A DNA stretch of 64,000 nucleotides from Glaucostegus cemiculus. Taxonomy: Eukaryota. The DNA is taken from the NCBI GenBank assembly GCA_976551045.1, contig CDPCPM010000278.1, forward strand, positions 3,658,001-3,722,000, read 5' to 3'. Numbering within the stretch: the stretch's first letter is position 1; every line of letters starts with the position of its first letter. This document shows, piece by piece, positions 10,945 through 62,447 of the stretch. The translations under genes were made by a program, and so were the position numbers. A model generated the notes under the pieces. The model worked only from the letters and a program-made list of their open reading frames with translations, did no database searches and was not told the origin of the DNA.

Positions 10945-11340
10945 CTTCCCGCCTCAGCACTTCCTCCCTCCATCCTCATCCCGCCTCAGCACTTCCTCCC
11001 TCCATCCTCATTCCGCCTCAGCACCTCCTCCCGCCTCAGCACTTCCTCCCTCCATCCTCATCCCGCCTCAGCACTTCCTCCCTCCATCCTCATCCCGCCT
11101 CAGCACTTCCTCCCTCCATCCTCATCGCACCTCAGCACCTCCCCCCTCCATCCTCATCCCGCTTCAGCACCTCCTCCCGCCCCGTCACCCTCCTCCCGCC
11201 TCAGCACTTCTTCCCTCCATCCTCATCCCGCCTCAGTACCTCCTCCCTCCACCCTCCTCCCGCCCCGTCACCCTCCTGCCTCAGCACCTCCTCCCTCCAC
11301 CCTCCTCCCGCCTCGTCACCCTCCATCCTCCTCCCGCCCC
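10945..11340. repeat. Minisatellite, 32-bp unit (cccgcctcagcacttcctccctccatcctcat), ~12 full or partial copies
   Basis: Direct tandem repeat, degenerating towards the 3' side. Confidence 0.95.
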
Positions 11341-37583: not shown

Positions 37584-37602
37584 TCAACTTTTCTCTTGCA
37601 CT
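37584..37602 (-). CDS. T-box gene candidate terminal coding exon (R-VQEKS-stop)
   Basis: Nearest acceptor (ttctaac branch-like motif, pyrimidine-rich tract, TTAG at 37603) read in phase 2 gives TGA at 37586-37584. An AATAAA lies on the minus strand at 37386-37381. No homology support. Confidence 0.35.
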
Positions 37603-38126
37603 CTAATAGTCCGAAGTATCAGCATGAAGAAGATGTTAGAATTGAAAGTTATGATCAAAGCATGTAAGAAAGGTTGTAAACGTATTTAAACACACAGATG
37701 TATGATAATACATTAAAATGAGCGTCACTGTAGACCATAAAGATTTGCAGCCTTTTTCATTTTCTATTTCTCAACTCTGCTTGACACATTTTAACTTATT
37801 GGTGCTTCTCCTTAACCCCTGTCCAGTACCTTGCCTATTTCAAGTAAGAATTTTTCCCCTATAGGAATAATTTCTTCTCAAGTATGCATTCACCTTGATG
37901 ACATAGCAACAATTTAAAATAAAAATGCTGATTTGTTTTTTATATTGTCCTATTATTTCGCTATTCTGCTTTATCCATCTCCACTAATAGACCTTTATAT
38001 GATTGTTACTCCTTTCACAGTGGATTGAAATAATTACAGTAGATTTTTCATATCAGTACAGTAAAATCTTTCTTATTATACCATTTGCAAACAGTATCAG
38101 AAAAGCAGTAATTTATAAAGACCAAC

Positions 38127-38212
38127 CTTTGTGGCATGTCCTTATGTCTTCTACTGCTATGTGGTAGAGCACCTTTGGCATAAGGGTTGTACTCTATCTT
38201 CATCATCTTCAT
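38127..38212 (-). CDS. T-box gene exon 6: C-terminal helices of the T-box (MKMMKIEYNPYAKGALPHSSRRHKDMPQ-R)
   Basis: KI..NP.AKG motif equivalent to ITQLKIDNNPFAKGFR; acceptor tcccatag, donor AAAG|GTTGGT; 86 nt, phase 0 to 2. Confidence 0.88.
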
Positions 38213-38589
38213 CTATGGGATAAGATGAAGACTACATACAGTTAAAATCTTTTCCTTTGCAGTATGAACCCATAGAAAACATGATTTTCAATAATTCCGT
38301 AGGGTAAATGTCAAGAAGCAGACACTCCTGACTCCATTACTGATTTGAAGAGATGGGGAGAGATTCTGTGATTTAGATATCATCAGATATCCCATGTTGA
38401 GAAGTTTGATCATTATTTTTATTGATGTGAATGAATTAGGGAATAGGTTAGTCATGTGTTGTGTTTTGAAACGATGAAATTGCACAAAAAACTTCATAGA
38501 GCATATGTTAAATTTAGACAGGCTAGTTTGTGGAGTGCTGTTTCTCACAATCTATTTCAAGCTGATACATTATTGGCTTAGCTGAGCTA

Positions 38590-38830
38590 AAATGGCATTA
38601 TTCAAGGAAAAGTAATGGAGTTCTAATTGTATCCTGACTAATATTTATCCATCAACCAATATTAGTAAAACAAATTATATTGGACGTTGGCTTATTGCTG
38701 TTTGTGGAATTCTGCTGTAAGCAATTGACTCCTGCATTTCAACAATGACTATACTTAAAAAGAACTTTATGGCTGTAAAGTGCTTTGGAACACTATTAAT
38801 GCTATACAAGTGCAAGCTCTTTCTTTATTC
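38590..38830 (+). mobile_element. SacSINE1/Deu-SINE-like 3' half in T-box intron 5
   Basis: aatatttatccatcaaccaa...ttgctgtttgtgg...ggctgtaaagtgctttgg...gctatacaagtgcaagctctttcttt. Confidence 0.7.
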
Positions 38831-39259
38831 TTCCATTATTCCATTTGAATGCCTTAAGTAGAAAGATCTCAGTGCTCATATCCTAGATTTAGATATATGA
38901 ATAGATAAGGCCAGTGCAAAGCCTCTCATATAGGAAAATTATGGAAAGCCCCCACAATTTCCTGATTTGCACTCTACATGTCAGAACTCTGTGCTGGCAA
39001 TGCACACTGCAAATTGATCTTAAAGCAGTAAATGTGGAGTTCTGTTTTAATCACCTGTGGTGATCATATTGGATATTCATATTACACTTAGTAATTTCCT
39101 GCTTAAATTCTGGGAGGCTGATTGATAGAAATATATTTATATAGCTTGTCAAAGTCTCAAAACGTAATCAAATAAATTAAATCTGTTTGGTTACTGTTAT
39201 TAGACAAACGTGTCATCCATTATTTCCACAGTTAATGATGAAACAAATGATTGTTTAAT

Positions 39260-39600
39260 CTAGGGAGTCAGCCTTAACTCAGAGGTAGCAGTTTTGAATC
39301 AGTTGTCATGTTCAGTTCCCAAAACAGATCCTGAAGCACATAATCTAAACTGACAAATAAGGGGTATATAGAGGGAATGATACATCGTTCATAGTTTCAA
39401 CCTTGGGATGTAGCATTAAATTAAGAACATGTTAGATGGATTCCATGGCACTCTTTAAAGATCAGAGGAGTTATCATCAGTCAGTGTCTTGCCATACATT
39501 TACCCTTGATCAACATTGCATCTGGCATTAACCTCAATGTTGTTTTTTTCCATCCTTGCTGTGTGCAAGGTGGCTATTTCCCTACATTATACCAAATGTA
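39260..39600 (+). mobile_element. SacSINE1/Deu-SINE-like diverged copy in T-box intron 5
   Basis: tRNA-like head followed by ttccatggcactctttaaagatcagaggagtt...ttgctgtgtgcaaggtggct...cctacatta. Confidence 0.55.
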
Positions 39601-39765
39601 CTCCCATGCATGGTATACATACGTTGCCAATGAAGTGAGACTTGCAGTCTCTCTTAGAAATACAATAAAATTATTGTAATAATCTTAAGCAATCATTTGA
39701 ATTTGAACACAATTACATGAAGATATCAAATTTATTCTATAAAATGCTGAAGTCAAAAAACACAC

Positions 39766-39909
39766 CTTTTTGCTATGGTAGTGACCCACAGCTATAAATT
39801 CTGTTTCTGGGAAGCAGTATGTCCATGAACAAAGTTTAGACTTCAGTTGCTCAGCATTCTGAATCAAATGAATTCGGGGTCTGTATTTGTGCATCGGAGT
39901 CAAGGGAAT
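39766..39909 (-). CDS. T-box gene exon 5 (IPLTPMHKYRPRIHLIQNAEQLKSKLCSWTYCFPETEFIAVGHYHSKK)
   Basis: MHKY.PR.H and FPET.FIAV motifs; acceptor tacctcag, donor AAG|GTGTGT; 144 nt, phase 0 to 0. Both flanking introns sit at conserved T-box positions. Confidence 0.93.
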
Positions 39910-42900
39910 CTGAGGTACATAAAAGAGGCAGCATTAGGTAAATGGCTGGCATTATTGAAAGAAGGATGGAGTTGAGAAATCAAAAAAAAACCCTTGATGA
40001 AACAACTTAGAGATTTTATTTGTTGATGTTATTTATTCAACCATATACTGGGTAGCTCATTATGTTAGGAATTTCAGGACTTAGTTTCTGTTGTTGAATA
40101 AATGAAAAGCTTAAAAGCAAAGTATTCATTATGTCAGCACTACATAGGTCCAATGTCCTTTGTGTGTTTCTCCAAACATTGATATACGTCTGTGGTACCT
40201 AGTTCTAAAAGTGATTTTGCTGTTTTTTGTCCAAAACACATTTTATGACATGATTACCTCTAAACTCAACTGACAACCTTTAATCATTTTGTAGTGGTGA
40301 GTGGGCAATTATGATGATGATGATGCGGTTACTTGCAGTTACCTAGAGAAAAACTATACTAACAAAACTACAGATGAATCATTAAGATTCCAGATAACAC
40401 TATGAATTTTCAGAATCTGTGGGAATCCCTCATAAATGCCAGTTGAAAGCAACATTGGTGAGTAAGGGGGCAGTTGGAAGTGTAAGAGTGAGGCTATACA
40501 TCTTAGTAGAAAAGATAAGAAATGCAAGTATACACTCATGTAAATAGATGCTGAAGAATGTAGATCGGCAGAGACATTAAGCACTTTAAGTAAACAAAGG
40601 TGCATATGATCACAAAATGGCCACAAAGAAGTTGTAATAGAATGCAACTGTAAAGAATTAGTGATACATTTGTTAAAAATAATGATTGGGCCACTGTTAG
40701 ATGTTCAGTGTCCCTCATTATGGAAAGACATGAAAGCCGCAGATAGTGAACAGTAGAGTTTGAACAAAAGAGGGATGTAAAAAAGGGTGGAATTGAGGTA
40801 TTTGGGTGTCCTCTGAAGCAGGAAAAGTTGAGAGAAAATTTCAGAGCTTTTTAACATCATGATAGAATGTAGTGAGCGGGGACAATTTTCTTCCTAGGTT
40901 GGAAGTTAATGTTTTAAATGGGGGAGCTATTTTAAATTATCAGGAGGAATGAAGATAGTGGTATTAGAATTCTGGATTATTTTTCCACAGTACATGGTTG
41001 AAGCAGCCCATTGCACCTATCAGGGAAATTTCTATATCTATTTGAAGACTGAAATGAAATCTGAATTCATTTAATGTCCACACATTCAAGTGTATTAACT
41101 ACTGGGGATTGGTTCAGTAGACTATAAGTGAGAACATCCCATCCCCCACACCCTTCTTGCTTCTTTAGCTCATGGAAGGCACTGGAGGCCAATTCTAACA
41201 CTGTCATTTCTGCTTTTGGTAAGGTCAGCCAACTCAGCACAAACCAGCAATCAAACCTTCATCTTAATGGCTCAGTATCACACCTGCCAGGCTACTTAAC
41301 CATTGAAGGAACTGTACCTTTTCATTTGACGCATTCCTACTCAAGCTACAGTATCATCGGCACCATGGAGAAAACTGTCCATTCTCCAACATCTGTGCTG
41401 TCAATTTGCTGTCTCTAATGAGCAGCAAAATTAGAACAAAAGAAGGACAAAATCTACCTGTCTCCAGAATATAACATTGGAAAGATCTTTTCAACACTTT
41501 TCAATTTACATTAATTATGTCTGTAATAGCACTACAAAAAATATGTAACTTGACTAGTAAAAGATGGGTTTATTAGCATTCAAACAGCAGTAAAATAGCG
41601 GTCAAATATCACAAGTGATGAGCAGTTCTGACTGTCAGGGTAATTACTGGCTGGTTTGTCGGCAATCTTCTCGTTACAAAAGAACTCCATTAGCTAACCG
41701 CAGGGAAAATAGTTACACCTGCCATTTTGGTTCAATACATACAAAAATAACTGTGACACTTTACAGCATTAAACTGGGCTCCCTGCTGCTTTGTCAATTG
41801 TGAGGATTCCAGATCAGTCTGCATGTGGCATTTTGAAAGGTTCCACCTGCCAGCTAGGTTAGAAACAAATGTTTTAGACTCTGATCTGAAAGCTACAATG
41901 TTCCACAAAAAAATACAGTCCATTTTTTAAAAATAGCTTCCAGTCCTAATAATGCAAACCAAAAATATTTTTTAAATGCTCACAAAAGCTTAGAAATATG
42001 AAAGGTACACTTGTTCTGTAATGCAGTGCATTCCTGTAAAGTGTAGAAATTAATTTTCACAATTTTATAGAGTTATCTAGGGTGCACACTCAAAGCAAAT
42101 TACTCAGCTAAAAGCACTTGCTGTGAATTCTGACAGTTAATGGGTACCTCATTAAGCCTCATCATTCAACTAGTTCAAAATCATCTCCCTGCACCTTCAA
42201 CTTTCCTGCCAAGAATCTAATTTCATATGAGCTATTCTGAATGATGTCATAGCAGAAAAGAGTTTGAGTAAGATTCAACCTGTGTTATCACTGGAGCAAT
42301 CCAATATGCAGAAAAGGGTGACATATTTTGACAATAAGATTGAAGGGTCTTTAAGGATTTTTAAACTGAGTGTGATAATTTCAATAATCAACCTGTTATA
42401 TGTCAGAATTTTAAAGCCTTTTTTTCCATTAGTAATTTGGGCTGGAGATTTATATAAGAGGAACACTTCACTGGATACTCTTAGAATGCTGGAGTGCAAA
42501 ATGGTATCAAATTCACACAAACAATTCACCAGTCAATTTTTGATCCTAAACTGCAGAGAGTTATATGGTACAACTGTTCAGGAATCTCTTTGTGTAATGA
42601 ATATAGCTCTTCTTTAAAGGGAAACAACCTGTTAAGGTTTTTATATGCAGTACCAAAGAAGTAAATCAGGGTCTCATAGCTCCCTTCTTCCATTGCTCAA
42701 AATTCCCTTCATTCATCAGCCACTCAGAAAAATTATATGTTATTCATCTCCAAGGTATGTGTTATGTGCTTGCAATACTGAGCTGTGGGAACGTTGAACC
42801 TGAACATGATCCTGACCCTGACCTCAATATACATTGAAACATTCCAGCAATGGTAAAAGGATGGTATTCCTGGCTTTTCCTTATTATGACTCTGAGACCT

Positions 42901-43924
42901 GTTCTTATTATGAAGAATAGTTACCTCAGCAAAGACTGGGGCCTGAACCAATAACTTACCTGGTCTAGATGGATCAATTCTAGACACTGAATTGAGCAAC
43001 TAAACTGTTAAGATGTTGAGGTTGGATGGGAAATAGAGAACCTGTTTCAATGTCTTTTCACTGTATATGGTCATTTCAAATTTGATAGGGTAAAAATGAA
43101 TTGCTCATGCTTTGCCTGAGCAGGTAGCATCGGACTGACTTTTTGGACTACCACAATGTTGTGTTACAACAATGCAGTGGGGATTTCTAGCATTAAGGAT
43201 TTGGAATATATGTATAAAGCAAATGTGTGACTTGGAGGATGATGGTGTACCCATCCAGCTACTGCCCTTGGCCCTCTTGTTGGTAGAGGTTACATGTCTA
43301 GGAGGTTCTGGCAAAGAGGAAAACCTTTTTGTGAATGGAGCTGCATATTGTTACCTTCTCGGTCCCAGTCCCAGTCCTGACCATTACAGCAGAAGAAAGA
43401 TCGCTGACTAACATGATTAGCTTGAAGATATTTTCTTGAAGAACTATTGCAAAGTTTTCTAGGCCTTAAATGATTGCAATGTGACAACCTTGACCATCTG
43501 CCATTATGTCAGACGTGTTAAGTGGCTTAAGCTATATTTCTTAATATAGTGGACAACTGCAATCACCTAACTGTTGTCAATTGCTCTATCTATATCTGAA
43601 TAAGGGCTGATACATCTTGATGGAATTGAAGAGAATGAATGTGAGGAGATTGAGTGTTACTTCATCGTACTATTGAAGACTGCTTTTTTCACAATGCTAA
43701 TGATTGGAATTAGTGTGATAGGTTCCTAAAATGATCTGGCTACATTTGTACAATTGCTCAAGGATTGAAGTCCCTAAATATTTTCTATATTATTGGGTGT
43801 ATATTGATATCATAGCTTGACTGGTGCTGCAGTAAGGTCCAGGGCACAGATATTTAACTGATAATATGACTTCTGAAACCTCACACCTTCTTCTTTGGCA
43901 TTACTTTGGAATTGAGAATGATTG

Positions 43925-44165
43925 TTTATACTCCAGCTTTGTGGGTTTTGAGGTGGCTGATGAGGCCAATGTGGAAACCACAGACTCTTCCACATATGGG
44001 GCTGGAGGTGCCTGATGGTGGGTGGTAGTTTCAGAATAGGTGTAGTAATTCTGATGCCTATGCAGGGCTTCTAAGTGGTGCTGATGTATGGACTTGAGGT
44101 TCTCAATGTCATCCCAAATACTCCCTCTCCATCTTGAGCAGTCATGGGCCAGATATCCCCAGGAG
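43925..44165 (-). mobile_element. RTE-type 3' end fragment in T-box intron 4
   Basis: gaggtggctgatgaggccaatgtggaaaccacagactcttccaca is shared with the 18940 region and with 27300-27390 (plus strand). Confidence 0.6.
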
Positions 44166-45254
44166 TGCAATGCTGAACTAGTTTCTTTTCCCCATTTTGA
44201 AAGATTAGTTTCCTCAGTTTTCTACAACTTGCTTCTCAAAGGACATTTGAAATACTGCTTTTAAAATCTGTGCTATCTTCCCTCTGATTTTTCATTCAAT
44301 TTTAACCTGCGGTCCTGAGTGTTGTTGTTGGACTGAATCCGTAAATGTGATGTGTCCTTAAATATTGACATTTGGTTTATTCAGACAATTTTCCCTATAA
44401 ATAAGGGGAAAAGAATATATAATTGTGGCATAAAAATATGACCAATGTATATGAGTTTAAAGTGGGTCAGGGATACATTTATATGCCCTGATCCAATTTT
44501 CAGCTAAAAACTGTACCTGATGATGCACTACTTACCCCTCCCCCACCATTATAAGACCATGGGAATTTGATTAATGAAGAGGAGAGAGAATTTCATAAAT
44601 GACTAATTTTCATTTAAGCATATAGTTTTGCAGTCTGCTCACATAAAATAAACAGAACAATTAATGTCATTCTTGTCACCTCTGCAAATGCCAACTCAAA
44701 TGTTCACTTAAGTGCTTGTTAAATTTTCATTGGCTGGACAGCACTGCCAGTAATGTAAATGTCATGTTTCTATGGTCTCTAGTTCTAATGTAAAAAGGAT
44801 AATTTGTCTCTTTAAAAAAAATCATTTTGATGCCAAAGCAATATTTATGGGGAGTCGTGGTGGTGGGGGATGCGAGAAGGGGGGTGGGTGCCAGAGAGGA
44901 GGTGGTAGGTGATAATACCAGGGATTAATGGGATATTATTCCAAAAAAACAACTTGTTTTTCATTTTGTTATATGTCATATTGTATGTTATAACCTACAA
45001 TAATACAGGTTAAAATTGCCATCCACAGCCAATGCTGGAGTTAAAATATACTGCTTTCCTCCCTAACAGAACAAATATAAGGTTTGCCACAAGTTTAAAA
45101 TGAAATCAGGTCACTTTAAGAGAAAGTAACGTATAATCAATCAGTTGTGACTTCACTGTGTTGTTGAAATCCAGTGCTTTAGCAGAACCCACACATTCTG
45201 AAACATTGGCAAACAAACCAGAGCTGACATTAGGGAAAGGAAATGTTCAAATCA

Positions 45255-45577
45255 TAAAGTCATACAGCCCACCGAGTCCTCGCCAACCATCAAACAGTCA
45301 TTTACATCAGTCCTACACAAATCCTATGTAATTGTCCCCACATTCTCATCATCTTTTCCAAGACTATACCACTCATTTCCACATTAGGTGCAATTTACAG
45401 TGGCCAACTAACCAACAACCTCCACATCTTTGGGATATGGGAGAAAACTAGAGAACCCAGAGGAAACTCTCACAGGGAGAATGTGCAAACTCATTCAACA
45501 CTGATGGTCATGACTGAGACTGAGGTTACTGGAGCTGTGGGGCAGCAGCTAAATGAGCTGTGCCACTGTGCTGCCCA
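45255..45577 (-). mobile_element. Older, diverged V-SINE-like copy
   Basis: Degenerate tgtgggaggaaaccggagcacccggaggaaaccca-like V-domain and a gggcagcacagtggcacagc head on the minus strand. Confidence 0.7.
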
Positions 45578-45974
45578 CAGATGATCTGTTTACTTAGTGA
45601 GTTGATACTATCTAAATACCTAAAGGGGAGATGGAAGCCAATTAAAAAAAAAGAAATTGCATAAATTCTTTAAGAGTAAATACATGCAAGGCAATGATAA
45701 AAGATAAGGAGATATGGGTTTATTGGATCACTCCTTCAAAGAACAAGAAAGAATGGGTTAAATAGTTGCCCTCTGTTTAATAACACTTCATGATTTGTCT
45801 CAATATCTGTTTTTTACTGCTTATTTTTTAAATTATAATTCTGATGAAAATAATCAAAACTCAAAAATATTTTAAATGATCTTTTTTGTCCCTTTATTAA
45901 AGTATCTAAATGCTTAAGACACATAATCCTAGCACATGTAGTTCAATCTGAAATCCGTAGATGTACTTCCACAA

Positions 45975-46322
45975 TGGTCTAATGGGTAAAGCAAACCACC
46001 TGATATGATACTGAGCCAGAAAAGTCACAGGTTAAAGGTCCAGTCAGTGCTGAATTAGAATGTTAAGTTAACTGACCACAGGCAAGACAATGTCACAACC
46101 AATCAATCAGTGTTCCAATACATCATCAATCAGTGAGCTCTTATAAAGTACATTTGGATGGATGTTCAGTAGGGATAAGATAGAACATGGCTGCAATGCC
46201 CTCCAAGAAATAATAGCCAGTAGCAAGTACAAACTCAAGCATTATATAATGTTTGCTTATGTGGGGACTGCTTCCAACCATAGAATTGTGATGCAATTAG
46301 AACTGGCACTATTACAAGGAGA
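45975..46322 (+). mobile_element. Ancient SINE-like repeat (LF-SINE/LmeSINE-like), highly diverged
   Basis: Shares a gtgctga.ttag..ga core and downstream blocks with 12830-12930, 59420-59700 and 57400-57540. The family name is tentative. Confidence 0.4.
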
Positions 46323-46375
46323 AAGGAAAAAAATATAAATACCCCAATCTTGGACTTTTGAAAAAGTAGACTCAC

Positions 46376-46498
46376 CATTCCTTTGTTGTCAGTCCCATTT
46401 GTTGTGCAGATTTTGAGCAGTTTAAAAGTTATGGGCTTGTCATTCAGCTCAGCTCCAAGGGCTGGTGTATCTGAGTGGATATAAACTCCACTTGATTG
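46376..46498 (-). CDS. T-box gene exon 4 (QSSGVYIHSDTPALGAELNDKPITFKLLKICTTNGTDNKGM)
   Basis: Aligns with the canonical Y.HPDSP..G..WM...VSF.KLKLTNN block; acceptor cctgtatag, donor ATG|GTGAGT; 123 nt, phase 0 to 0. Too short for the ORF track. Confidence 0.9.
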
Positions 46499-47534
46499 CT
46501 ATACAGGTTTCAGGAGGTAAACAAAAATAGTTCAGAAACATATAATTAAAGAACAGAGAAAAGCAAATCCTCCTCAGCACATTGTTTAGATCCAAGCCCA
46601 CGTTCTCATGGGACTGAAATTTCTAAGACTCGATGATGTGCAGCCCAATGTTTTGAAAGAGGTAGCTATAGAGATAGTGGATGCACAAGTTGGCATCTTG
46701 CAAAAATCTAAAATGGATCCCTCAGACCATGGATTGCAACCCCAGTTCATTGGATTTTTGTGCTTTTTTGATATTTCATTAAAAGCTTTATTGTGTGACC
46801 ATTACCACTTCAGCCTCAGTGTTAACGCTAATGCTCGTGTCCAAATCCTTTCTGGTAGTGTCACTGTTGTTCCACTCCTGATTCTGATTAACCAATGTTA
46901 TTGTTAGGTGGGTAGGTTGGTTACATGAAAGCACTGGACATCAGGTCCATTAAGTTTGCCCCACTCAAAAATCCACACCTCCATTCTACTCCCAAACCAT
47001 GCACTACATTGGAGGGAATCGAAATACAAGGGCATCTGTCCAATTAAAGGAAAACATCAGAATTTTTTTCTTCCACTCCTTAAGGCGGTCAAGTAAAGTT
47101 CTCTGGAAGATTGTAGTCCCAGTAAATTTTGACATCCAAACTACAGCAGTTAATTCATTCCTCCCCATTTGAGGTAGTCTGATCCAGGGAGCTGTGAAGA
47201 GGCTTGATCTCCTACGAACTCCACAAACCAGAATGTGCTGGAAATATATCTTCTCCAAATAGAATAAGGTATTGTTTCCATTCAGGCCTTTCAAAGACAT
47301 CTGCTTGCACAATGAATCCATATCAAATTAATTGGATGATGATTCTCTACTTTTGTAATACTGGCAATGTATCAAATTTTGCTAACTTTTATAATAAAAT
47401 TATGTGGTGGTAGTAAATTCCTCAACTACTTTTCCCTTGATACCTTCCTCTGTCATTTCCCGCTCTAATTCCCATTGTCCACCAGTCCACTTCAGTTTGA
47501 ATAGTTGTTCATTCTCATAATCACAGTATCCTAC

Positions 47535-47685
47535 CTGCTGTCGAGCTGGAGCAGATGGGCACCAGCCCCGCTCCTCTGTGTAGGAGTAGCGCTGATCACT
47601 GCTTGACTCCATATCCACCATAAGTGTGTATGACTTTTCTGGATCTAAACCATGCAGTGTGATGACAATAGGGGGGAACAAACAT
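47535..47685 (-). CDS. T-box gene exon 3 (CLFPPIVITLHGLDPEKSYTLMVDMESSSDQRYSYTEERGWCPSAPARQQ)
   Basis: FP......GLDP...Y....D......RY.....W motif; acceptor ttttattccacag, donor CAG|GTAGGA; 151 nt, phase 2 to 0. Confidence 0.93.
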
Positions 47686-47789
47686 CTGTGGAATAAAACA
47701 AATACAGAATCCACTCTGCTTGCAAAATAGTGCAAAATAGTAAAACAAAACATTATTTCTTTGTAACATAATTTGTTTCCTGTACTATC

Positions 47790-48225
47790 CCCATATCCCC
47801 TGATTCCAGAAATTTATGAATGTTTGTTTTGAATGAACTCAGTAACTGAATCTTTACAGCCATCCAGGACAGAGAATTTGAAAGATTCACTACCCTCTGA
47901 ACAAAGAAATTTCTCTTTATCTCACTCTTAAATAATTTGCCCTTTATTTGGAGAGTGTGGTCCCTGATTCTATACTCCTCAGTCAGGGGAAACATCCTCC
48001 TTCCATCCAGCTTGCTAAACTTTGTGAGATTATTATGTTTCAATGAGATCACATCTCATTCTTTTGAACACCAGAGAACAGAGACCTAGTCTACTCAGTG
48101 TCTGCTCATGGGGAAAGCCTGTCATCCCAGGAACCAGTCTCATGAATCTTCTTTGCACTCCATAAATAGCAAAAACATCTGTTTTAGGTAAGAAGATCAA
48201 AAATATACATTATTTTCCAGTATTT
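47790..48225 (-). mobile_element. CR1-like LINE 3' fragment next to T-box exon 3
   Basis: MFPLTEEYRIRDHTLQIKGKLFKSEIKRNFFVQRVVNLSNSL is a typical CR1 ORF2 C-terminus. Confidence 0.85.
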
Positions 48226-48329
48226 TAAATATAACCTTGATTGAGGAAATCTTTGGAATTATCTTTCAAGAGGGCATTGGTTGCCTTATTGTGCTTAATG
48301 AGCTCTTCTCCATTCTTGTCTTTTAACAG

Positions 48330-51524: not shown

Positions 51525-52865
51525 TAATTCTTTTGTTTGTATCTGGGTGTCACCAGCGTAACTGCCATTAGGGTAGCAGTGAACTGTCTTAATGAACACC
51601 TGCAGTTCTTCTGGTGAAGGTACTCCCATAGTGCTTCGGGTATGGCATTCCAGGATGTAGACTTAGCGACAATATTTTTATAAAGATGGCGCACAACATG
51701 CCCTTGCTGTCCTGTCCTTCTTATTGGTGGAGGTTGTGGGTTTGAGAGGAGCTATCAGAGTAGCCTAAGTGAATAAATGTGATGCATTTTGTAGATGGTA
51801 CACATAGTAGCACTGCACTACTGGTGGAGAATATCCCATCACACTTCCAATTTGTTGACAGTGGAAAAGCTTTGGAAGGTCTGGAGATGAGTCACTCACC
51901 ACAGGATACCCAGTCTCTAACATGCAATTGTAGCCAGACTATTTATGTGGCTGCTCCAGTTTAACTTCTGGTCAATGTTGGCCCCTGAGGGGTAGGTTAG
52001 GGGTAGATGATTATACTTTCTCTTGTTGGAGATGGTCATTGACTGGCACATTTGTGGCATGAATGTTACTTGCTACTTAGCAGCCAATGCCTGTATCTTG
52101 TCTAGGTCATTCAGCATGCAAATATAGACTTGTTCATTTGTTGAGCTGTGAATGGAATGAACATTATGCAGTCATCAGAAAACCTCCCTGGCTTTGACCT
52201 CATGATGGAAGAAATGGAAGGAAGGCTATTAATGAAGCAGCTGAAGAAGATTAGGCCGAGGACTCTGGCCTGAGATCTTAGAACGAGAATGATTGACCTC
52301 CAACAACTACAACCATCTTTGTTTGTGCAAAATAAAACTCAACCATTGGAGGATTTTCCCCTTGACGTCCACTGATTTTAGTTTAACTGATGCTCCATGC
52401 AGCCACACTTGGTCAATATTGCCTTGATGTCAATGGCAGTCACTCTCACCTCACCTTTGTAATTCAGCTCTCTTATTCATGGTTGTGGTGAGCTGGTTGT
52501 TGGAGAGTAAGTGCCGCTTGATAGCACTGTTGGTGACAGCGTCTGTCAATTTGCTAAAGTAGATTCATGGGATGGTAAATAGCTGGATTGGACTTCTTGT
52601 GCTTTTTTGTGAACAGGACATACCTAGGCCATTTTCCAAACTAAGAATAGATGCCAGTATTGTACCTGTACTATAACAGGTTGGCTAGAGGAGCAGCTAG
52701 TTCTGGAGTGTCCATACCACAGCTAAAATGTTGTATGATCCCATAGCCTTTGCTGTATCTCAGCCTTTTCTTGATAGCACATAAAGTGAATATATTTAGA
52801 TAAAAGCTGACTTCTGCAAAGGTAAGTGTCTCAAGAGGAAGCCAAGATGGATCATCTATTCAACA
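51525..52865 (-). mobile_element. Old CR1/L2-like LINE fragment including RT region
   Basis: gccttgatgtcaatggcagtc (TAIDIKA..DQVW-like on the minus strand), gcagtcatcag (ADDC); paralogous to the 28600 copy. Confidence 0.75.
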
Positions 52866-55164
52866 TTTCTGTTAGACTAAGGTGGGAGGAAAAGCAAATG
52901 AAAAAGGAATAGAGTAGAAGAAATTGGAGGATGCAGAAAGGTAAGTAAAAATTGTTTTCATTTGTTTAAAATTATTTCTAAATATTTAAATTTTGATTTG
53001 GGAAATTAATAAAGCTACTCTTGTAATATGAATGACTTGATAAACATACCCCACATTGAATATTTTAATACTTACTGAACATTTTTGTTCAGTTCATGGA
53101 GACCACTATTTACTTGCATTCTGTCTGCCATTTCTTGCTTAATTGATTCAAGTATTCTTGCATGCTGATTATTTGATTTGATTTGTCTCTTGGATACATA
53201 AATTGGTGTCATCAGCAATATGTATTGAAAATATTCTAGTGGATCTGGAAGGCTTTCCTTACAGCATGCAATTTCTTTTCTAACAGCAGGGATGTAATAC
53301 AACATATTCTATTGCTAGGGTAGAGCTATGCTCAAGTAAGCTTATTCTTTTAAGATCAAAATTCTAGTTTCTTTATTTGTAAACATAGCATAACATCACT
53401 AAATGGCATAAATGCTGCTTGGTCAAGGAACTTTGTAGATTGAAATGTATTTGATAATTTAAGCTTTCAGCTGAACACAGAACATTTAAGACTTTTGTAA
53501 CAATTTGTGATGTCAGTATGACAAAATCTTAATATACCAACAAATTACTCATGCTCTCACTAATATTAAGTCAAATGGAGATTGCATTAGCCTGCTGCTA
53601 AAGTAAATCTGTATCCCTTAAGGCCACTGTCTAACTGCTGTTGAATAAACACTAAGTCTGAATTTAATTGCCATTCAGACTGTGAGTCATAATGTTGGTT
53701 TTCCTTTTGGTGAGATAAGTTAGAGGGTATATATATTCCCTTCTTGAATGATTGCTTTTCCTTATGCTTGTGTGTACCAAGTGTAAGGTTGAAAGTTGAC
53801 TGTAGAGTCTAAAGGAAATACCTAGTATGTGACTTATTGGAATATTATTGGCACATAGATATACAGGAAGTACTTAAGACATGTATAAATGGAAAGGGTG
53901 CTGCAGAACTCAACCATTCATACCTCCAGATGATGGTGTTTCCATTTATCACTGCCTGCTTCTCGTTCAATTTTCAATGCAGCTAGCTAGTTATCAATTA
54001 ATTCCCTAAGCCTTAACCTTTAAAAAAATCAATATTCTATGTATTTAATTTATCCATCTTTTTCCTGCCACAAATCAATTCAGTTTTTTTTTGTTCTAGA
54101 TTAGCTGCTTCTAATTTTCATTCACTAGATAACTTCTATAGGACAAGTTCTACAGGGCATATGCCACAGCATTTAGGAACATAAGAAAACTTTAAAAGCA
54201 TGCCATTCACCCCATTATTCCATTCCCTTATTAACGCATTATGTGCCTTTTATTAGATTCACATTTAACATTGGAGAAATTCTGTAAAGCATCCAAGGAC
54301 ATAATTATATACATCATAACATAAAACAGAAAATGCTGGAAATTCAAAGTTAGCTTTTCAGGTTGATAACTTTTCATCATGAATTCTGTTTCACACTCTA
54401 TAGAGGTTGTCTGCCCTGCTGAACTTTTCCAGTATTTTTTGTTTTATTTCAGATTTCCAGCATCTGTAATAAATTGCTTTTCAACAATTATACTGGGACT
54501 TAGTTAGTACAATTTGGTCACTAATTTTCTCCAAGACCTAGAGAAGCAATGTTTAACTCAAATCAGACTGATGGAAAGGAGTTTTTTTTTAATGGTTCTA
54601 AGTATCCCATTGTATCCTGAAGTATGTAGTGTATTTCAATCCTTGGTAACAAGACAAATAATAATTTGGCTCAAATTGGTTATACCATTGCCAAGAAGGA
54701 GTTTGTATTATAAATATCACATTGTAGGAGGAGCAGAAAGTTATCACTATTTGATTTACCAACTTTATTTACTTTCCCAAATGTATTGACTTATTACTGA
54801 GATAATATATTTTTCTGGCTTTCACAAGGCTAAATAAGGAGAAATCATGCACTATTGAGGAGGAAATAAGCTTCAGGGACAAATAATCTTTTCTCATTTT
54901 TATGCTCTTAAAGTTAAGAGTTGAGTTAGCTGAGATAAGTCAGCTAACTTAGCACTAATCATTTTCTTTCAAACTTGGCACATTTTTGCTTTGTACAGCT
55001 TGGCTAATTGTTATAAGAACTCATTGAAACATCAAGTGAGGAGGGAATGCCCTTCTGAAATATGAGATGATATTAAAGTATCAGTACTTCACATCTCAAC
55101 TATGTCAGACATTAAAGGGAATCGTTGTTATTGAAACTTGGTGCCAAAATGGGAACAATGTTCC

Positions 55165-55515
55165 ATTTGAGAGGCATAGATAGGGTAAACAACCAGAATC
55201 TTTTTTCCCAGGGTAGAAATGTTGAATACTAAGGGGCATATTTTTAAGGTGAGAGGGGGAAAGTTTAAAAGGCATGTGAGAGGCAAGTTTTTTTTACACA
55301 AAGAGTGATAGATGCCTGGAATATGCTGGTAGGAGTGGCAGTGTAAATAGATACGACAGTGGCGTTCAAGAGGCTTTTAGAAAGGCTCATGAATATACAG
55401 GGAGTGGAGGGATATGGATCATGTTCAAGTAGAAAGGATTAGTTAAATTTGGCATTATGCTCGGCACAGACATTATGGGCCGAAGGGCCTGTCCTGTGCT
55501 GTATTGTTCTATGTT
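55165..55515 (+). mobile_element. CR1/HER1 LINE 3' end
   Basis: gaggcatagatagggt...aaggtgagagggggaaagtttaaa...gggccgaagggcctgtcctgtgctgtattgttctatgtt. Confidence 0.85.
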
Positions 55516-56499
55516 ATCACACTGAATTTCCTTACTTTAAGGGAACAAAATTCACTTACATAGAAAGAAGGTATAACTGTGCCATGGATAAAATGCAATG
55601 TTGCTCCATTCAACTAATACCAGAGATACGAAGATTTATTTAAAATAGACCTGAGAAGTTGAACATTAATGTATACAAAACCTCATGCAAGATGTGAAAA
55701 AGCAAATAATGAACTATAATTTAAACTAGTCAGTGAATTAGTAACAGGAGAATGTAATTTTAAAATTAATATGAGAAACAAAAAAGGGAGGTTGAAGGAT
55801 TTTGTTTTGCAAAAAAATTAGAATATGGAATATCATTTTACAAGTAGCCAGCAAATCTAGTTAAATCACATTTAAAAATGAGTAAGGCCAGTGTTTAAAG
55901 AAATGATTCAGAAAACAGAGAACAAGGGATACAAGATCTGGACTGCTGAGCTAACACAGGTACAAAGGGTCAAATAACAAACTTTAAAAAAAGACACAAG
56001 AATTCATATATCTCCATAAATTACAAACACACTCAGATCATGGACCAGCTAATATAAATTCATCACCAGCTCTGCTATGTAAGGGGAAAGAAGTTAAAAA
56101 TTATTGGAAATGTAACCTATTGACATGGAATACAACCATCAATGGCCTTTGAAATATTCAGAATAATCGACTCATTAATGACTCTGAAATGCCATACATA
56201 ACGTTCAATTGAGCCTACATGGTTATTATTCAGCAAAGAAAAGTGTATGGAGGAGGAAATCTCCCTGCAGTTGTGAAAAACAGCAGCCCTAAGTGGAGTA
56301 AAGGCTACGTAATTTGAACAATTTTCCATTTGTCCTGTAGATTAGCTCTACTCTATTAGACTTGGAATTAATGTGCAGTATGGTGGCAAGAAAGATTGAG
56401 AAACACTGTCTATCTCCAACCATCAGGAGCCTCAAAGCATTCATCATAGTTGCTCTGAAGTGCACCATAATTAATACCTCTGAAAACACTCATAGGTTC

Positions 56500-57240
56500 T
56501 CTATTAGGTAAAAAAACAATTCTGGTTTCATTACAACTACCAGGAGATCCAAGAACGAATTAACCAGAAAAGCAAGGTATTCTTGGATTGGAAACTCCAT
56601 GATGACTCAAAGGAAAAGAATATCTCTGCAGACATCTGAAGGCTGAGATCCAGCAAAAAAACTCCCATGATCAATAGATGGTGCGTGGAAAGAGCATAGG
56701 TGATCCAGCAACTAACAGCTGATAACCACAACAGACATGGATTCTTCAGAGCTTTAAAGACTACTTATAGCCAAAGCATTGGAAGGCCACCCTGTTGAAC
56801 ACCAAGAACAGAGCAAAGCTCAGGAACAGAGAAGCAGTCTGAAACCACTCGAGGAAGTGCTTTGAAGGACTCCTGAGATTCTGTCCTTGATTTGAATGTT
56901 CCTGACTTCATTCCACAGGAAACTATTCGGTCCACCCTTGCCACCACCCCAGACCAACAAGGAGTTGAAAAGATTATATGTCAATTGAAAAAATACAAGG
57001 CCAAGCAATGCAGATGGATGCCTGCAGAAGTTTCAAGACATGACAAAGAGGAACTTCAAACACAAGTTCAAAGCCTCATTCATTTCCCACATCTGGGAAG
57101 TAGTTAGATGTGCCAGGGAACTTCAGAGATGTAATAAATTGTCAAGGAAGGAGACAAATCTGACTACAGAACTACAGGAGGAAAAGTCAACATCAGCATC
57201 CTCCTCAAACACCTTCTTTCAGTTGCTCCCCAAATGACGT
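56500..57240 (+). mobile_element. RTE-clade LINE internal fragment
   Basis: VEKIICQLKKYKA...MPAEV resembles the pre-RT segment of RTE ORF; upstream qdwfd-like region. Confidence 0.65.
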
Positions 57241-60200
57241 TCTAGAGGCACATAGTGTGACACGTCTCAGAAATGCAGTTTGCAGCATCAACCACAAAAC
57301 ACAGCCTCACAGAAGCCTTTGGCCCCTTAATTGTCCTGTGTGCTTGATAATAGTCAGAAAGAAACTATGAACTTAATAATATCTATACTTTGTGCAGTTA
57401 GGAGACCTCCATTTTCCAGTTAGAGCCAAGTTATAAACTGAGTCGACATAGCAATTAATTTCAGAGCCCTAATTGTGGAGAGAAATTACCAGGGTTCTTA
57501 CTCCTGATTGTGTTTCCATGACTGACAAGGGAATACATTTAAGATTTGAATTTAAAATTTAAGGTTAGAATGTGGAATTTACTGCCACAAATCCTCATTG
57601 AAGTAGGGTTCATAAGTGAATGAAATTAATTTAAAGAGAAGTGAATGGAGAGTGAGTCTAGAACAGGCTTGGTTGAATTAAAATACTGACACAGATTTGA
57701 AAGGCTGAATGACAATTTTCAGTCCTGAAATTCTCTATATTCTGTTCATTTTTAAAGCCAACTTGAAATATATCAAAACCTGTCAACAATTTCAAAAAGT
57801 TTGCAGTTTCTAAATGGTTTACAACTGCAATATGGTACCGATTATGAACCAGCACTTACATGGGCTTTGTAATGCAAGATTAACCCATCATTCCTTATTT
57901 AAATCAGAGATAATCAAACATAAGTATCTAAGAACCTCAAAAGGGACTATAAATGCTGAAGGCTCAATAACAATACTGCATTTCTCGGGATCAGAGGCAA
58001 TGTTCCCTAAGGAATCTTTGGGATATTATTTCATACGATGCATTCCTGCTAATTTGACTAACTTTCAAATGTTGAAATTGATTGATTGTAACATTGAAAA
58101 ATAGTAACAATTGAGTAGTCAGTAAAATTGTTGGATCCCTAAAATCTGCCTGAACCATCATTCTCCCACATCTACTCCCTACACCTCAGTTCAATTCACC
58201 CTTTCTGGACTCCATTCACAAACTTACTGTATACTTTCCAGACTCAACTTAAGTCTTTCCTTATCTCATGGAACACCCCATCTTTTCTCTCCCCCAATGC
58301 AATTCCTTCTTCACCCTCAAGTCAGTCTCTAATTTTACTCGCAATTCACCTAGAAAACCTTTCTCCACCCCTGATGTTCCTCTCTCAACTCCACTCCCTA
58401 ATTGCACCTCCCTTAAATCCGCTGGTCTCAACATTTGCCCTATTTTTCTTCCCAATACGGTGGTTCATTGCTCTTTGCTTTATTCTCTCCTCCTTCCTCA
58501 CCATTGTTCCCAGTAATTTACTTCCTTCGGAGCCATTCTTACCTGATGAGTGATTCTATTGATTCAATACTGAGACTCTCTATTTACATAAGAATTCCCA
58601 CCAACAGTCTACAGGACATGGAATCACTTACATTAAAAGTAGGAGCCTAAGTTCACGGTAATTTTTGTCAACAGACACTGCCATGTGAACATGGTGTCCG
58701 AAACATTGATATAAGAACATACAAAATGAAAGAAGCAATTGGATGTACAGCTACCATTCAATGTTACAGCAGCTCCTTTACCTCAGGCACATTTTATCTC
58801 CCCGATCAGTATATCATTCCCTTTCCTTAATATCCATGCTGGCTGATTAAGAAATGCTGGAAATGTCCCAAGGTTTTCCCAGCCAATCTGAAAAGTCTAC
58901 TGATGCTTGTTGTCTAAGTTTCCAAGTGATGACTTGGGCAAATATCAGAAGATAGTGAAACTGTAAACCAGGAATTTAAAAAAAACTATCTTTGGGAAAT
59001 AATTGGGGGGTGGGGGGGGGGGGGAAGCTGTCCTACTCTTTTGTGTTTGCCAAGTTAAAGACAAAATGCAATTACTAAGATAAATAGTGCCAGTAACTTG
59101 TAATTTAAAAGCTTTTATATAAAGATATTGTGATTGATTAAAATAATGGTGAAGGCCTTTCAAAGTTGATTGTATGGATTCCAGAAATTTCTTTCTTCTG
59201 CAGCTGTGCAGCATTTACAAAGTAAATCAATAAATGCATGGAGTGCAGATGATCTTGTTTCACAATTGTACTCATGTGGGTCAAGATGTTCTTTAAAGAA
59301 GTGCATTGCTCCTGCTAGGAAAAACACTAGAGTGGGGTAATGGTAGCAACAGCATAGACCTGTTTAGCTGCTGTGATAGCTGGGTACAATTACATCAGCC
59401 GGTGTGGTGCTGAGTCGTGTAAAACAGAAACCTCATGTTCAATTTCTAACTCTGCTGCATTTGCTGATTTAAGCCATGGCATTGTTATTTACAGATGTCT
59501 TATGTATGTTGAGTTAGGGAAGGGGAGGAGCAACTGGCACGGATAGGAGCTTCTGGTATTCACCAATAATCATTGCTGGAAATTTATAGATCAGCGGTGA
59601 ATAGCCTGTCGACGCTCACTGTCCAAATTCAGCAATTTAAAAAAATGTCCATGAGATTCTTAACAACATGGAGGCGAGAAGTTGAGTGACCCTACTACTG
59701 TTCTTTACCTTTACCACCCTATTTGCCATGAGTGGCTGAGCTCATTCTGGGACTTTCCACCAAGTGTCATAATGTGCCACTATTTAACACAAAACTTGTT
59801 GTCTCCCCCCCCCCCCCCCGCTACATTATTTAATTATTTTGATTTTCGCCTCTCCCCTGTCATTCTCACAATTTGTTTTCCAGTTAAGAAGACAGTCAGC
59901 CATCTTACTGTTAAACCAGTGACACTCTTTAACCTGTCACTAAGAATTGAAGACCAGTGGTGGTATCCAAATCCCCATTCCTTGAAAAATCTTGATCAAT
60001 GTACTTACCCAAATACAGCAAAAATAACTAGATGATCTTTGTTGTTCTAGTTTCACTGGAAGGCTCTCAGCTAACATATTCAGGATTGCTGAACAAGAAT
60101 TCTTACTGTATATCCTGGTATTATTTTCTCCCTCTACATCTGCCTCACGAAACCACTGACTCATTGCTACGAAGCAGTTCAAGTGAGGTGCAATTACTTA

Positions 60201-60299
60201 TTTTCTGCGCGTTTCGTTTGGCTGGACAACACTCACAACAAAACTCCATCTATCATCCACCTGCCTCTTAGCCTGTCATCTTTCACCCGTCCTCAGAGC

Positions 60300-60540
60300 A
60301 CCAATCATCTCGGACTCCTGCCTCATCACTCCACCTCCTCTTTACACCAGCCACCTCCCCTCTGCACTCTCAGTCCTGATGCAGGGCTTCGATCCGAAAC
60401 GTCAACATTTCCTACCCCCCCCCCCACCCCACCCCCCACCACACACACACACACACACAAATGCTGTTCGACCCGCTGAGTTCCTCCATCAGATGGTTTG
60501 TTGCTCCAGATTCCAGTTTCTGCAGTCTCTTGTGTCTCCA
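60300..60540 (+). mobile_element. Penelope-like element terminal (pLTR) fragment with hammerhead-like motif and (CA)n insert
   Basis: cagtcctgatgcaggg...cgaaacgtc...tgctgttcgacccgctgagttcctcca...ccagattccag...tctgcagtctcttgtgtctcc. Confidence 0.75.
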
Positions 60541-61499
60541 ATCCTGAAAACAATCCTTTCTTCCAGCGTCCACACGCAATGTACTTCGGGATCACCCAAG
60601 CAGAAACTTTGCCCAATATTTCCTAAAATTGCAGCGCTTCAGACAGCCTGGACTTTTAGCGAAATTAGTCACTGGGGAAACTAATGCTGAGGTCATTGTG
60701 TTACAAATGTGCAGAGGTATGTACCTAAGATAGGCCACCTGATGACAGTACCTGTACAATAGGTGCATCGTTAAAGGGGGGGGGGGAGGGGAGGTCATCA
60801 AGGTCAGAAATGGACAGCAGACGCTAATTCTTAAAGGATTTTGATATTAACCTGAAAGTCTCACAATTTGGAATATGCCACCCCAGGAAAGAAGTTCTGC
60901 AGGTGTCGTTTACAAATATCTTGCAATTAACTCAGCGAAAAATCCCAAAGCGCTTAACCCTATGTAAAATGAACTCTTGCTGTGTAGCTTTCCCCTGCTT
61001 TCATACAGATCCATGGATAGTGTTAGCACATTCTTCTTCTGTGAATTGACTGCGATAACCATGGAGAATATCACACCTTAGGCGAATCTATCTTCCCTGA
61101 GATCTCCTTTTAGGTTTACTGAGGCAGGAACCCAGACTGATTTCTAACTCATTAGCCTTGAAGCACCAGTGGCGTGGAAACACGACAAGAATTCCGCTCA
61201 TCGTGATTATAAAAACTACATTAAAAAAAAACTTCCAAGAAAAAAAAATTAATCAGTTTAGATTTTGTGATCCCATTTGAGATTAAAAATGTCAAATATG
61301 TGTTTTTGCTTCTAGCGGTTAAAATTACTGCCCCCCCCCCCCGCACACACACAAAATTTAGAATTAGTAATTGCCACAGGAGGGATACTCACATGGAACC
61401 GCACCCCAGTGTGAGTCGGTGTCGCCAGGTGGAGAGGAATAACAAATGTGGGTAATAAAATGAGATGGAAATGAAAGGTTACACTCTCCGTTACCGTAC

Positions 61500-61637
61500 C
61501 TTCCTCTGCCTGTCACTATCATCTCGGTGCCCACTGAATGGAACTTGCTCCACAGCAACTCGTTCTCCTTAACCAGTCTGATTACTGGCACCATCCTGGT
61601 GGTTTCCAGATCCATGGGAGAGAAAATATTATATGCT
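61500..61637 (-). CDS. T-box gene exon 2: start of T-box domain (AYNIFSPMDLETTRMVPVIRLVKENELLWSKFHSVGTEMIVTGRG-R)
   Basis: LW.KFH..GTEMIVT..GR signature. Acceptor T9-AG at 61638; donor AG|GTACGG splits the Arg codon in phase 2, the intron position typical of T-box genes. Confidence 0.9.
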
Positions 61638-62313
61638 CTAAAAAAAAATGCTCTTTAAGAAAAGTTTCCACCGTAAAGTTGCTTGGCGATAAGTGCGCCA
61701 ATCCTTCGGTTTGGGATCACTGGCCGCACATCAGAACGCGAGTCTCAACATCACCACCAGTAAAGAAACCAAAGCTGGACTTTTAATCGTTTCCGAAGGT
61801 TACACTTGGCTTTGCTGAACGTGTTAATCCTGTAGTAATTTTCATCAATAGAGCATTTTGTTTGAAATATCTCTGTCTGTGTTCAAAGCCGCCGGAGCCT
61901 GGTCGACCATCAAGATGACGCCTCGGTGAGATAAAGCTGCACGCACACTGGATGCGGGCGTGATTTTTTGTCAGGGAAGGTAGATTCACTGTCAAAGACA
62001 AGGCCAGTTGAATAGTCATCGGTCACATTCTGGTCTTCGGCGTAAGTGCAGATGCTGCGGTGTGCCTCTTCCGTCTGGATGCTGCTGCTGTCTCCCGTTG
62101 CTGCTTTATCTGACCCCCCGATCGCTTCTCTCCGGCTGGCTGTCTGCGGGCAGATCCTGGGAGGTTTGGATCTCCTGTCTGTCCTCGGCTGCCAGTCTCT
62201 ATCCGATCCGATCCGGTCTCGAATCGCCTGGAACTGGTGATCTGATCTCTCATCACAGACCCGTCCCCCCCGCCCCCCCCCCCCCTCGGCTCACCTCTCC
62301 CTAACACTCTTAC

Positions 62314-62447
62314 CTAAAATTTCTTATATTTTTCATCTGACACGCTGCGATCACAAGATCTCTTCCGGGAGCTGCAGCCTCTCTGTTCCCTTCCCTGGGC
62401 TCCATCGTTTTTCTCTTAATCCAGTTATTTTTATCCAACAGCACCAT
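62314..62447 (-). CDS. Divergent T-box gene, probable first coding exon (MVLLDKNNWIKRKTMEPREGNREAAAPGRDLVIAACQMKNIRNF-R)
   Basis: Open frame from ATG 62447 (in-frame TAG further upstream) to a strong donor AG|GTAAGA at 62314/62313. The phase-2 end joins in frame to the acceptor at 61637. There is no homology support for this N-terminus and the start ATG is uncertain (three in-frame ATGs). Confidence 0.55.

Follow-up and report, generated by a model that had tools for sequence, protein, structure and literature searches.

What kind of gene lies on the minus strand of this 64,000-nucleotide window of the Glaucostegus cemiculus genome, where does it belong within the T-box family, and what protein does it make? 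We lean towards the view that it is a conserved, single-copy T-box gene, found only in cartilaginous fishes and unassigned to any subfamily, which likely uses FAM222A exons as its C-terminal tail, giving a hybrid regulator with probably altered DNA recognition.

Exon structure and expression

The T-box lies in exons 2-6 of the minus strand (61615-38127), which splice at GT-AG boundaries without stops into a full domain. The initial annotation had described a six-exon T-box domain; its boundaries, the lack of stops and its introns (676, 13814, 1036, 6466 and 1553 nt, all GT-AG when the minus-strand exons are spliced) were confirmed, whereas the domain occupied five exons, and its first exon (62447-62314), open and splicable in frame, received no support from orthologue proteins. 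This exon may be 5' UTR or no exon at all. The likely start is the ATG at 61615, where batoid protein models begin, within exon 2 (61637-61500), which ends at the shared G-R phase-2 intron. Exon 3 (47685-47535) keeps the equivalent of brachyury R69, with the next Arg changed to Cys; exon 4 (46498-46376) has Leu instead of a conserved Trp, and exon 5 (39909-39766) keeps the MHKY strand and carries GHYHS in place of the TAYQN-type motif. Exon 6 (38212-38127) encodes the DNA-contact helices, with a Phe to Tyr and a Phe to Ala change, and has a phase-2 donor. The proposed end of the gene at 37584 did not stand, as it needs a seventh, 19-nt terminal exon (37602-37584) that matches no orthologue tail; the 3' end is likely outside the window. 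At the 5' end, a CpG-enriched stretch (61001-63000, observed/expected 0.71-0.75) is likely the promoter of the gene.

The spliced T-box scored 170.6 bits against a profile made only from the other T-boxes of this genome, the best of 500 shuffles reaching 5.6, which rules out a chance open frame. The comparison with Pfam PF00907 that had been proposed as a check agreed: four of the five exons matched individually at E values no higher than 0.006, and two of these exceeded the curated cut-off; exon 6 by itself gave no match to this family, and the orthologues scored 165-170 bits (cut-off 26) over positions 3-180 of 182. The gene is single-copy: no second T-box copy was found genome-wide, nor specifically within 100 kb upstream or across 10 kb at FAM222B exon 3. 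Intron 2 contains a GRRMF motif (48004), which was discarded as a T-box because repeats cover the region and two T-box profiles gave it no score. The locus is placed between MVK and FAM222A, with GLTP and TCHP as further neighbours; a search for MMAB gave no match, which does not show its absence.

Three of the introns share position and phase with those of the T-box paralogues in this genome, as had been asserted for most T-box genes. Because these ancestral introns are kept, a retrocopy is excluded and the gene is, as initially proposed, a genomic paralogue. The fourth, middle intron, after exon 3, is private, no other T-box gene in the genome having an intron at this position.

One transcript contig joins exons 3 and 4; the 1036-nt intron is precisely missing from it, and its 276 nt contain 1 mismatch. 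In three raw RNA runs, of each of which 18-24% was read, depth was zero or nearly so in the bins of exons 3, 5 and 6. One run was flagged as "probably DNA", although introns of two genes are spliced out in its contigs.

Taxonomic range and placement within the T-box family

The T-box was 85-99% identical to its shark and ray orthologues, 80% to that of the chimaera Callorhinchus and 33-41% to the 17 other T-boxes of the genome, whereas identities between the canonical subfamilies are 45-64%. These values imply that the gene is old and now conserved. The description "fast-evolving" thus does not apply today, the identity within elasmobranchs being like that of FAM222A (91-98%) and TBX22 (88.5%, this ray vs. 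white shark), with the divergence on the stem. Retention in cartilaginous fishes, on the other hand, was borne out by T-box records in 20 of the 23 species listed. A profile search gave 308-467 bits for four chondrichthyan clusters and 151 for the next of its 25 hits. Two further searches show the same restriction or gap, and none of these three word-seeded searches found an orthologue outside Chondrichthyes; no invertebrate protein stood out, the best non-chondrichthyan matches scoring like any T-box. Searches of the Atlas returned generic T-box and FAM222 clusters only, and a metagenome scan recovered one locus among 592 candidate stretches, at a 35% match.

The database models of cartilaginous fishes named "T-box transcription factor mls-1-like", "VegT-A-like" and long "protein FAM222A" are orthologues of this gene. 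The names, given automatically, are best-hit labels, and VegT-A-like was rejected because a separate TBX16/VegT is present on another contig of this genome (C665). We found no published description of the gene in the main texts of the open-access literature; subscription papers or supplements could mention it.

The claim that the gene is unassignable to a named subfamily was upheld, as identities, free trees and AU tests gave no placement. The chondrichthyan clade received a support of 100/100 in both free trees, on a long stem (1.3-3 changes per column), and none of 11 placements was rejected by the AU tests. Grouping with the TBX6/TBX16/MGA subfamily (p-AU 0.418, 0.378 and 0.418; TBX6 0.418) was seen in neither free tree; p-AU was 0.23-0.30 for the TBX1/10/15/18/20/22 group (TBX1 0.23), and TBXT/TBX19 and TBR1/EOMES/TBX21 were the least favoured (0.079 and 0.054) yet not rejected. 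The best identities, 38-41%, were with TBX2/3/4/5, beside whose TBX2/3 members the gene stood in one tree at 54/69 only, and near-identity was absent.

Introns were compared with those of the T-box genes present in this assembly, among which TBX6 was not found. The intron after the RY motif in TBX16/VegT and TBX1 is absent here (MGA, by contrast, is intronless), as are the RY-R intron of TBX1/15/18/22 and the PA-R intron of TBX20. The middle intron lies 11 nt from that of TBX20; it is lacking in TBXT/19, and in the TBR group one lies 4 nt away in another phase. Where the TBX1/15/18/20/22 group has a two-residue insert before the conserved Trp, only one extra residue is found, and the Trp to Leu change is common to this gene and TBX20.

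Three other origins have to be weighed against that of an unassigned chondrichthyan T-box. It is improbable that the gene is an orthologue of TBX6 or TBX10 that was displaced and has strongly diverged. Repeated searches found neither canonical gene in this assembly, and grouping with TBX6 or TBX1 is compatible with the AU tests; however, such an absence from 1511 contigs proves little, and the gene has its own intron instead of the one that follows the RY motif, and does not have the complete two-residue insert. Moreover, its neighbours MVK, FAM222A, GLTP and TCHP are presumably not those of TBX6 or TBX10. A similarly small chance is given to the survival of a pre-vertebrate T-box class lost in bony vertebrates, which would fit either transcript model discussed below; Tbx7/8, a T-box class present in amphioxus and in non-bilaterians, would be an example. 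The equal distance from all subfamilies, the private intron and the slow change within Chondrichthyes agree with such a survivor, but no invertebrate protein stands out and the stem greatly exceeds in length those of old subfamilies, pointing to a burst of change irrespective of how old the gene is. Finally, a decaying duplicate or pseudogene is largely refuted: although many near-invariant positions are replaced and the exons are barely covered in three RNA runs, the frames are open in 20 species, identity to the chimaera is high, most replacements are fixed throughout the family and a spliced contig exists. For the unassigned T-box that we prefer, the history would be that of a duplicate that changed greatly before the split of sharks and chimaeras and stayed near-constant since then.

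DNA-contact residues and predicted fold

Of 59 near-invariant T-box columns, 21 are replaced in this gene, as compared with 0-6 in the 17 canonical T-boxes, and most of these replacements are fixed in 8/8 family members. In brachyury, the base-contact residues are R69, F213 and F217 (PMC11828899). With the numbering transferred by hand via the TBXT of this genome, R69 was kept, F213 was Tyr in all eight members, and F217 was Ala in seven and Thr in one. These changes concern the mode of binding, not descent from the T-box family, with which the gene shares the full domain, the three introns, the predicted fold and the major-groove arginine, and from which it differs in its low identity, its middle intron, the replaced residues and the lack of a C-terminal regulatory region of its own.

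The fold is predicted to be the normal immunoglobulin-like one with C-terminal helices. A model of the chimaera orthologue had a pLDDT of 87.9 and a TM of 0.8-0.9 to the solved structures of TBX5, Brachyury, TBX1 and TBX3, and leans to the canonical fold because 25 of its 31 alignment rows are other T-boxes; the model from the gene family alone was poor (pLDDT 44.8). DNA recognition is, to judge from the replaced residues, probably altered. The domain would still contact DNA via the kept arginine and one aromatic residue, and the standard T-box element may be read weakly or differently, since the second minor-groove Phe and the TAYQN motif are replaced.

A divergent paralogue of this kind has a parallel in Xenopus Tbx6r, also lineage-restricted, intron-bearing and changed in activity, which shares 53% identity with Tbx6 and is assigned to the Tbx6 subfamily (PMC2877776). 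The ray gene is more divergent and unplaced, has a much older range and did not group with a Tbx6r-like protein.

A probable link to FAM222A

The phase-2 donor of exon 6 fits in frame the second exon of FAM222A (G000:C278:3589005), across a 107,121-nt GT-AG intron downstream. The fused T-box-FAM222A reading frame is open over 671 aa and is 98% identical to Mobula models. Both this link and the replaced DNA-contact residues were missed in the initial annotation. FAM222A exons 2-3 encode the ordinary 448-aa protein, 96-99.8% identical to skate and sawfish proteins. Its own first exon (10622-10471, minus strand, donor after 10471; the 5' limit, from a contig overhang, is approximate) lies inside the would-be fusion intron and in a CpG island (8001-11000, observed/expected 0.69-1.05). 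Since the donor of this exon has the same phase, the compatibility of exon 6 with FAM222A could be due to chance.

Database models from 23 species comprised 14 fused, 6 T-box-only and 3 FAM222A-only cases. The fused models, mostly labelled FAM222A, span rays, skates and four shark orders; they are predictions and may be copied across species by homology. In 15 models, the linker of 17 codons (51 nt) before the FAM222A ATG was open and 94% conserved, vs. 96% for the next 27 codons, a count biased by the fact that a linker has to be open to be modelled at all. Depending on the species, the exon 6 tail has 12 to 15 residues, with the junction always at Ser or Arg in the proteins compared, as a kept phase would give. 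The T-box-only models end in unrelated tails, among which there was no conserved stop or terminal exon and only an intron read-through tail matched this window; the skate contigs P0020 and P0022 also encode T-box-only products. In a Stegostoma model the T-box is followed by FAM222A exon 2 and then by TCHP, an order suggestive of loose read-through here. Regarding RNA, in the only contig over the start of FAM222A exon 2 the preceding sequence is the first exon of FAM222A itself, and one of the three raw runs had 10 reads on exon 2. The junction with exon 6 was absent from 4/4 RNA runs, none of which covered exon 6.

An appreciable though smaller chance falls to a real, unnamed chondrichthyan T-box that stands alone, with about 200-235 residues, the fusion being occasional read-through or copied annotation and the short, tail-less protein a competitor or partner of T-box factors. 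The first exon of FAM222A, with its CpG island and the only upstream junction seen, argues for this reading, as do the T-box-only models of six species, the two skate-like contigs, the Stegostoma model and the polyadenylation-type hexamers located 0.6-0.75 kb past exon 6. Against it stand the fused models in 14 species of such breadth, the linker nearly as conserved as the exon's coding part, and T-box-only models without a shared end.

Under the fusion, which we prefer, transcripts from the T-box promoter would run from exon 6 directly into the second exon of FAM222A, bypassing that gene's own first exon, and the ordinary protein would be made from the internal promoter. The hybrid would thereby gain the disordered region of FAM222A, modelled to dock Nemo-like kinase (NLK). 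More tentatively, and at somewhat less than even chance, the gene would be an extra T-box subfamily present since before the shark-chimaera split, with its DNA-reading surface rebuilt, whose product in sharks and rays is a T-box-FAM222A chimera; such a new transcription factor architecture, hidden in databases as FAM222A, would bring an NLK-docking region to a non-standard motif.

A vertebrate precedent for a T-box fronting an unrelated protein is MGA (PMC3177325). The T-box of MGA has no introns and is considered a retro-insertion. This gene differs in keeping its introns and promoter, and its connection would be made through splicing to an adjacent gene whose own first exon is retained. No T-box form is reported, nor does "tbx" occur, in a paper on FAM222A (Aggregatin) (PMC12690120), and three FAM222 clusters of the Atlas list no T-box. 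Were the fusion true, this would be the second vertebrate T-box with a foreign tail after MGA, obtained here via splicing to a neighbour, and would be a hint that the FAM222 proteins, which are poorly understood, act in the nucleus. Were it false, the long "FAM222A" models of 14 species would be merged genes hiding a T-box gene from surveys.

The inventory of T-box genes in jawed vertebrates is regarded as complete, and the residues with which they contact DNA as nearly invariant. An additional, conserved chondrichthyan T-box, in which contact residues were replaced and then frozen, represents a natural experiment on T-box specificity. Its restricted range would reflect either gene loss in bony vertebrates or an innovation of cartilaginous fishes, either of which matters for how the earliest jawed vertebrates are reconstructed.

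Exon structure and orthologues

The initial annotation had described a minus-strand T-box gene in the window (G000:C278:3658001-3722000; G000 is the 2.85-Gb Glaucostegus cemiculus assembly of 1511 contigs). Its six exons (62447-62314, 61637-61500, 47685-47535, 46498-46376, 39909-39766 and 38212-38127), five GT-AG introns and intron lengths were confirmed, and splicing was stop-free. A complete T-box domain was indeed present, occupying exons 2-6 and not all six exons as had been stated; exon 1 lacked orthologue support, and the proposed 3' end at 37584 would require an unsupported 19-nt exon. The spliced domain scored 170.6 bits on a profile made from the 17 other T-boxes of the genome (best of 500 shuffles, 5.6). 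The gene is single-copy, and its encoded T-box was 99.4% identical to a sawfish protein, FAM222A of the same genome being 99.8% identical to its sawfish counterpart. Two further segments matched models from other species: 41759-41845 (-) was a 93% match to an alternative exon from Narcine, belonging to an isoform that begins within intron 4 and would yield half a T-box fused to FAM222A, and 32284-32430 (-) matched the terminal exon of a sawfish model that omits exon 6 and so lacks the DNA-contact helices.

A protein search with exon 5 returned nine proteins among nine candidates, every one chondrichthyan; their clusters covered 23 species, 20 of them with a T-box-bearing record. These records came from rays, skates, sharks and Callorhinchus, in agreement with the suggested retention in cartilaginous fishes. 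Two further searches gave 12 matches among 245 candidates and 25 among 6659, the family scoring 308-467 bits and the next match 151; as the searches rely on common 5-residue words, a distant bony-fish or lamprey orthologue might escape detection. T-box identity was 85-99% to elasmobranch orthologues, 80% to the chimaera and 33-41% to the 17 paralogues. Ray-shark conservation of the domain about equalled that of FAM222A or TBX22, which does not fit the label "fast-evolving"; judged by these comparisons, the divergence is old and the gene is constrained at present. The orthologues already stand in public annotation, where misleading names have apparently kept these known sequences from being recognised. 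A literature search, mostly over titles and abstract openings of open-access papers, found no description of the gene or of the fusion discussed below, and the lineage is apparently undescribed.

Subfamily placement and the DNA-contact surface

The 17 other T-box domains were reconstructed from their loci: TBX2, 3, 4, 5, TBXT, TBX19, TBX1, 15, 18, 22, 20, three TBR-group genes, TBX16/VegT, MGA and an MGA-like gene, with labels resting on characteristic motifs and the trees and TBX22 alone verified against a named shark protein. The best-fitting donor of one intron each in TBX5, TBX1 and TBX16/VegT was GC, not GT (heuristic, read-free calls). In a 39-row tree the family formed a clade (100/100) joined, with a warning, to another long branch; after removal of 16 rows (long branches, near-duplicates) it stood beside TBX2/3 with support of 54/69, both trees being built without TBX10, amphioxus, cyclostome or Tbx7/8 sequences. 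All 11 groupings that were forced on the tree survived the AU test (p-AU 0.054-0.457). The gene is, as first proposed, unassignable to a named subfamily, its sequence signal being too eroded for placement. Three introns fit the T-box family pattern, upholding its reading as a genomic paralogue. The middle intron had no counterpart in any of the 15 paralogues with introns; it is 4 nt away from the site of the TBR group and 11 nt away from that of TBX20 (one apparently wrong automatic TBR junction was disregarded).

Across 17 canonical T-boxes (16 of this genome plus echidna TBX6), 59 columns were at least 90% invariant. The family replaced 21 of them; canonical T-boxes, each left out in turn, departed at 0-6. 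The MGA-like gene (G000:C284:2433868-2434416, minus strand), which like MGA is intronless and shares 56% identity with it, replaced 14, both C-terminal phenylalanines among them, and clustered with MGA and a goby protein. One study gives R69, F213 and F217 as the base-contact residues of brachyury (PMC11828899). The family retains R69 and has Tyr at F213 and Ala (Thr in the chimaera) at F217; the TAYQN motif is replaced by GHYHS in the Glaucostegus gene. A model of the chimaera orthologue reached pLDDT 87.9 and TM 0.8-0.9 to solved T-boxes, other T-boxes making up 25 of the 31 rows of its alignment. We infer that the fold is intact and that recognition of the T-box element is probably altered or weakened.

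Genomic surroundings and the link to FAM222A

On contig C278, protein matches placed TCHP (3.35-3.37 Mb, minus), GLTP (3.41 Mb, plus) and FAM222A (3.53-3.67 Mb, minus) before the T-box gene (3.70-3.72 Mb, minus), which is followed by MVK-like exons (3.92-3.93 Mb, minus; exon-level matches under the family cut-off); presumably human 12q24 holds TCHP, GLTP, FAM222A and MVK in the same order without a T-box gene. Towards MVK, 100 kb of 196 kb was scanned, for T-box copies and long frames only. Besides the split GLTP on C278, two single-exon GLTP-domain frames were found (G000:C133:246528-246947, C542:399788-400213). On C410, FAM222B and TBX2 are ~1.07 Mb apart, and on C278 TBX1 is ~4.65 Mb from the T-box gene, so each FAM222 gene shares a contig with T-box genes.

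The first protein search had returned proteins combining T-box and FAM222A in four of nine matches, and database models were fused in 14 of 23 species, T-box-only in six and FAM222A-only in three. The exon 6 donor can be joined in frame to the acceptor of FAM222A exon 2 over an intron of 107,121 nt; the resulting 671-aa frame is 98% identical to Mobula models. In favour of fusion, the 17 codons that precede the FAM222A ATG form an open stretch with 94% conservation (15 models; 96% for the next 27 codons), the tails of T-box-only models have no common sequence, and exon 6 tail length varies in whole residues. Against it, FAM222A has its own first exon (~10471-10622, minus) within a CpG island at 8-11 kb, with a donor in the same phase as that of exon 6, and the junction from this exon to exon 2 was the sole upstream one observed; automated models may pass from species to species, the zebra shark (Stegostoma) model P0008 runs from T-box through FAM222A exon 2 into TCHP, and two skate-like contigs encode T-box-only products. 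In Glaucostegus, TCHP (G000:C278:3352956-3371249) shares its strand with FAM222A and lies ~218 kb past exon 2 of that gene. GC-rich tandem repeats flank the FAM222A first exon (9700-10150, unit about 42 nt as judged from translation, and 10900-11400).

Expression and alternative readings

Of the T-box gene's splicing expected in RNA, one junction was recovered, from a single run: in X1 a 319-nt contig (depth 6.6) spans exons 3 and 4, omitting the 1036-nt intron exactly and differing at 1 of 276 bases. X1 is flagged as probably DNA, possibly of a related species, yet it also contains a spliced FAM222A contig. In raw data from three RNA runs, of which 18-24% was sampled, the bins holding exons 3, 5 and 6 had nil or nearly nil depth; exon 6 was uncovered in every run examined, so the unseen fusion junction says little. 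Repeat fragments at about 36100, 43950, 45400 and 47900 draw many diverged RNA reads, and the last of these, near 48000, produces a false GRRMF motif.

We somewhat favour a chondrichthyan T-box gene that would use FAM222A exons 2-3 from an upstream promoter. The T-box-only products would also suit a stand-alone short T-box protein, a possible but less probable reading. Apart from the FAM222A tail, the T-box has no regulatory region. Whole-assembly searches found no canonical TBX6 or TBX10, through assembly gap or loss; that the gene is one of these, displaced, seems unlikely. Similarly doubtful is a survivor of a pre-vertebrate T-box class, which would be compatible with either the favoured or the stand-alone reading. 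The open, constrained frame makes a pseudogene very improbable.

The T-box lineage of cartilaginous fishes is real, with an altered DNA-contact surface; the T-box-FAM222A fusion is predicted and plausible. A conserved part of the FAM222A tail docks NLK in a published model, and the protein's listed interactions include MEIS and PBX (PMC12690120). Most likely, two promoters would have FAM222A exons 2-3 in common, the upstream one putting a divergent DNA-binding domain onto the disordered FAM222A tail.
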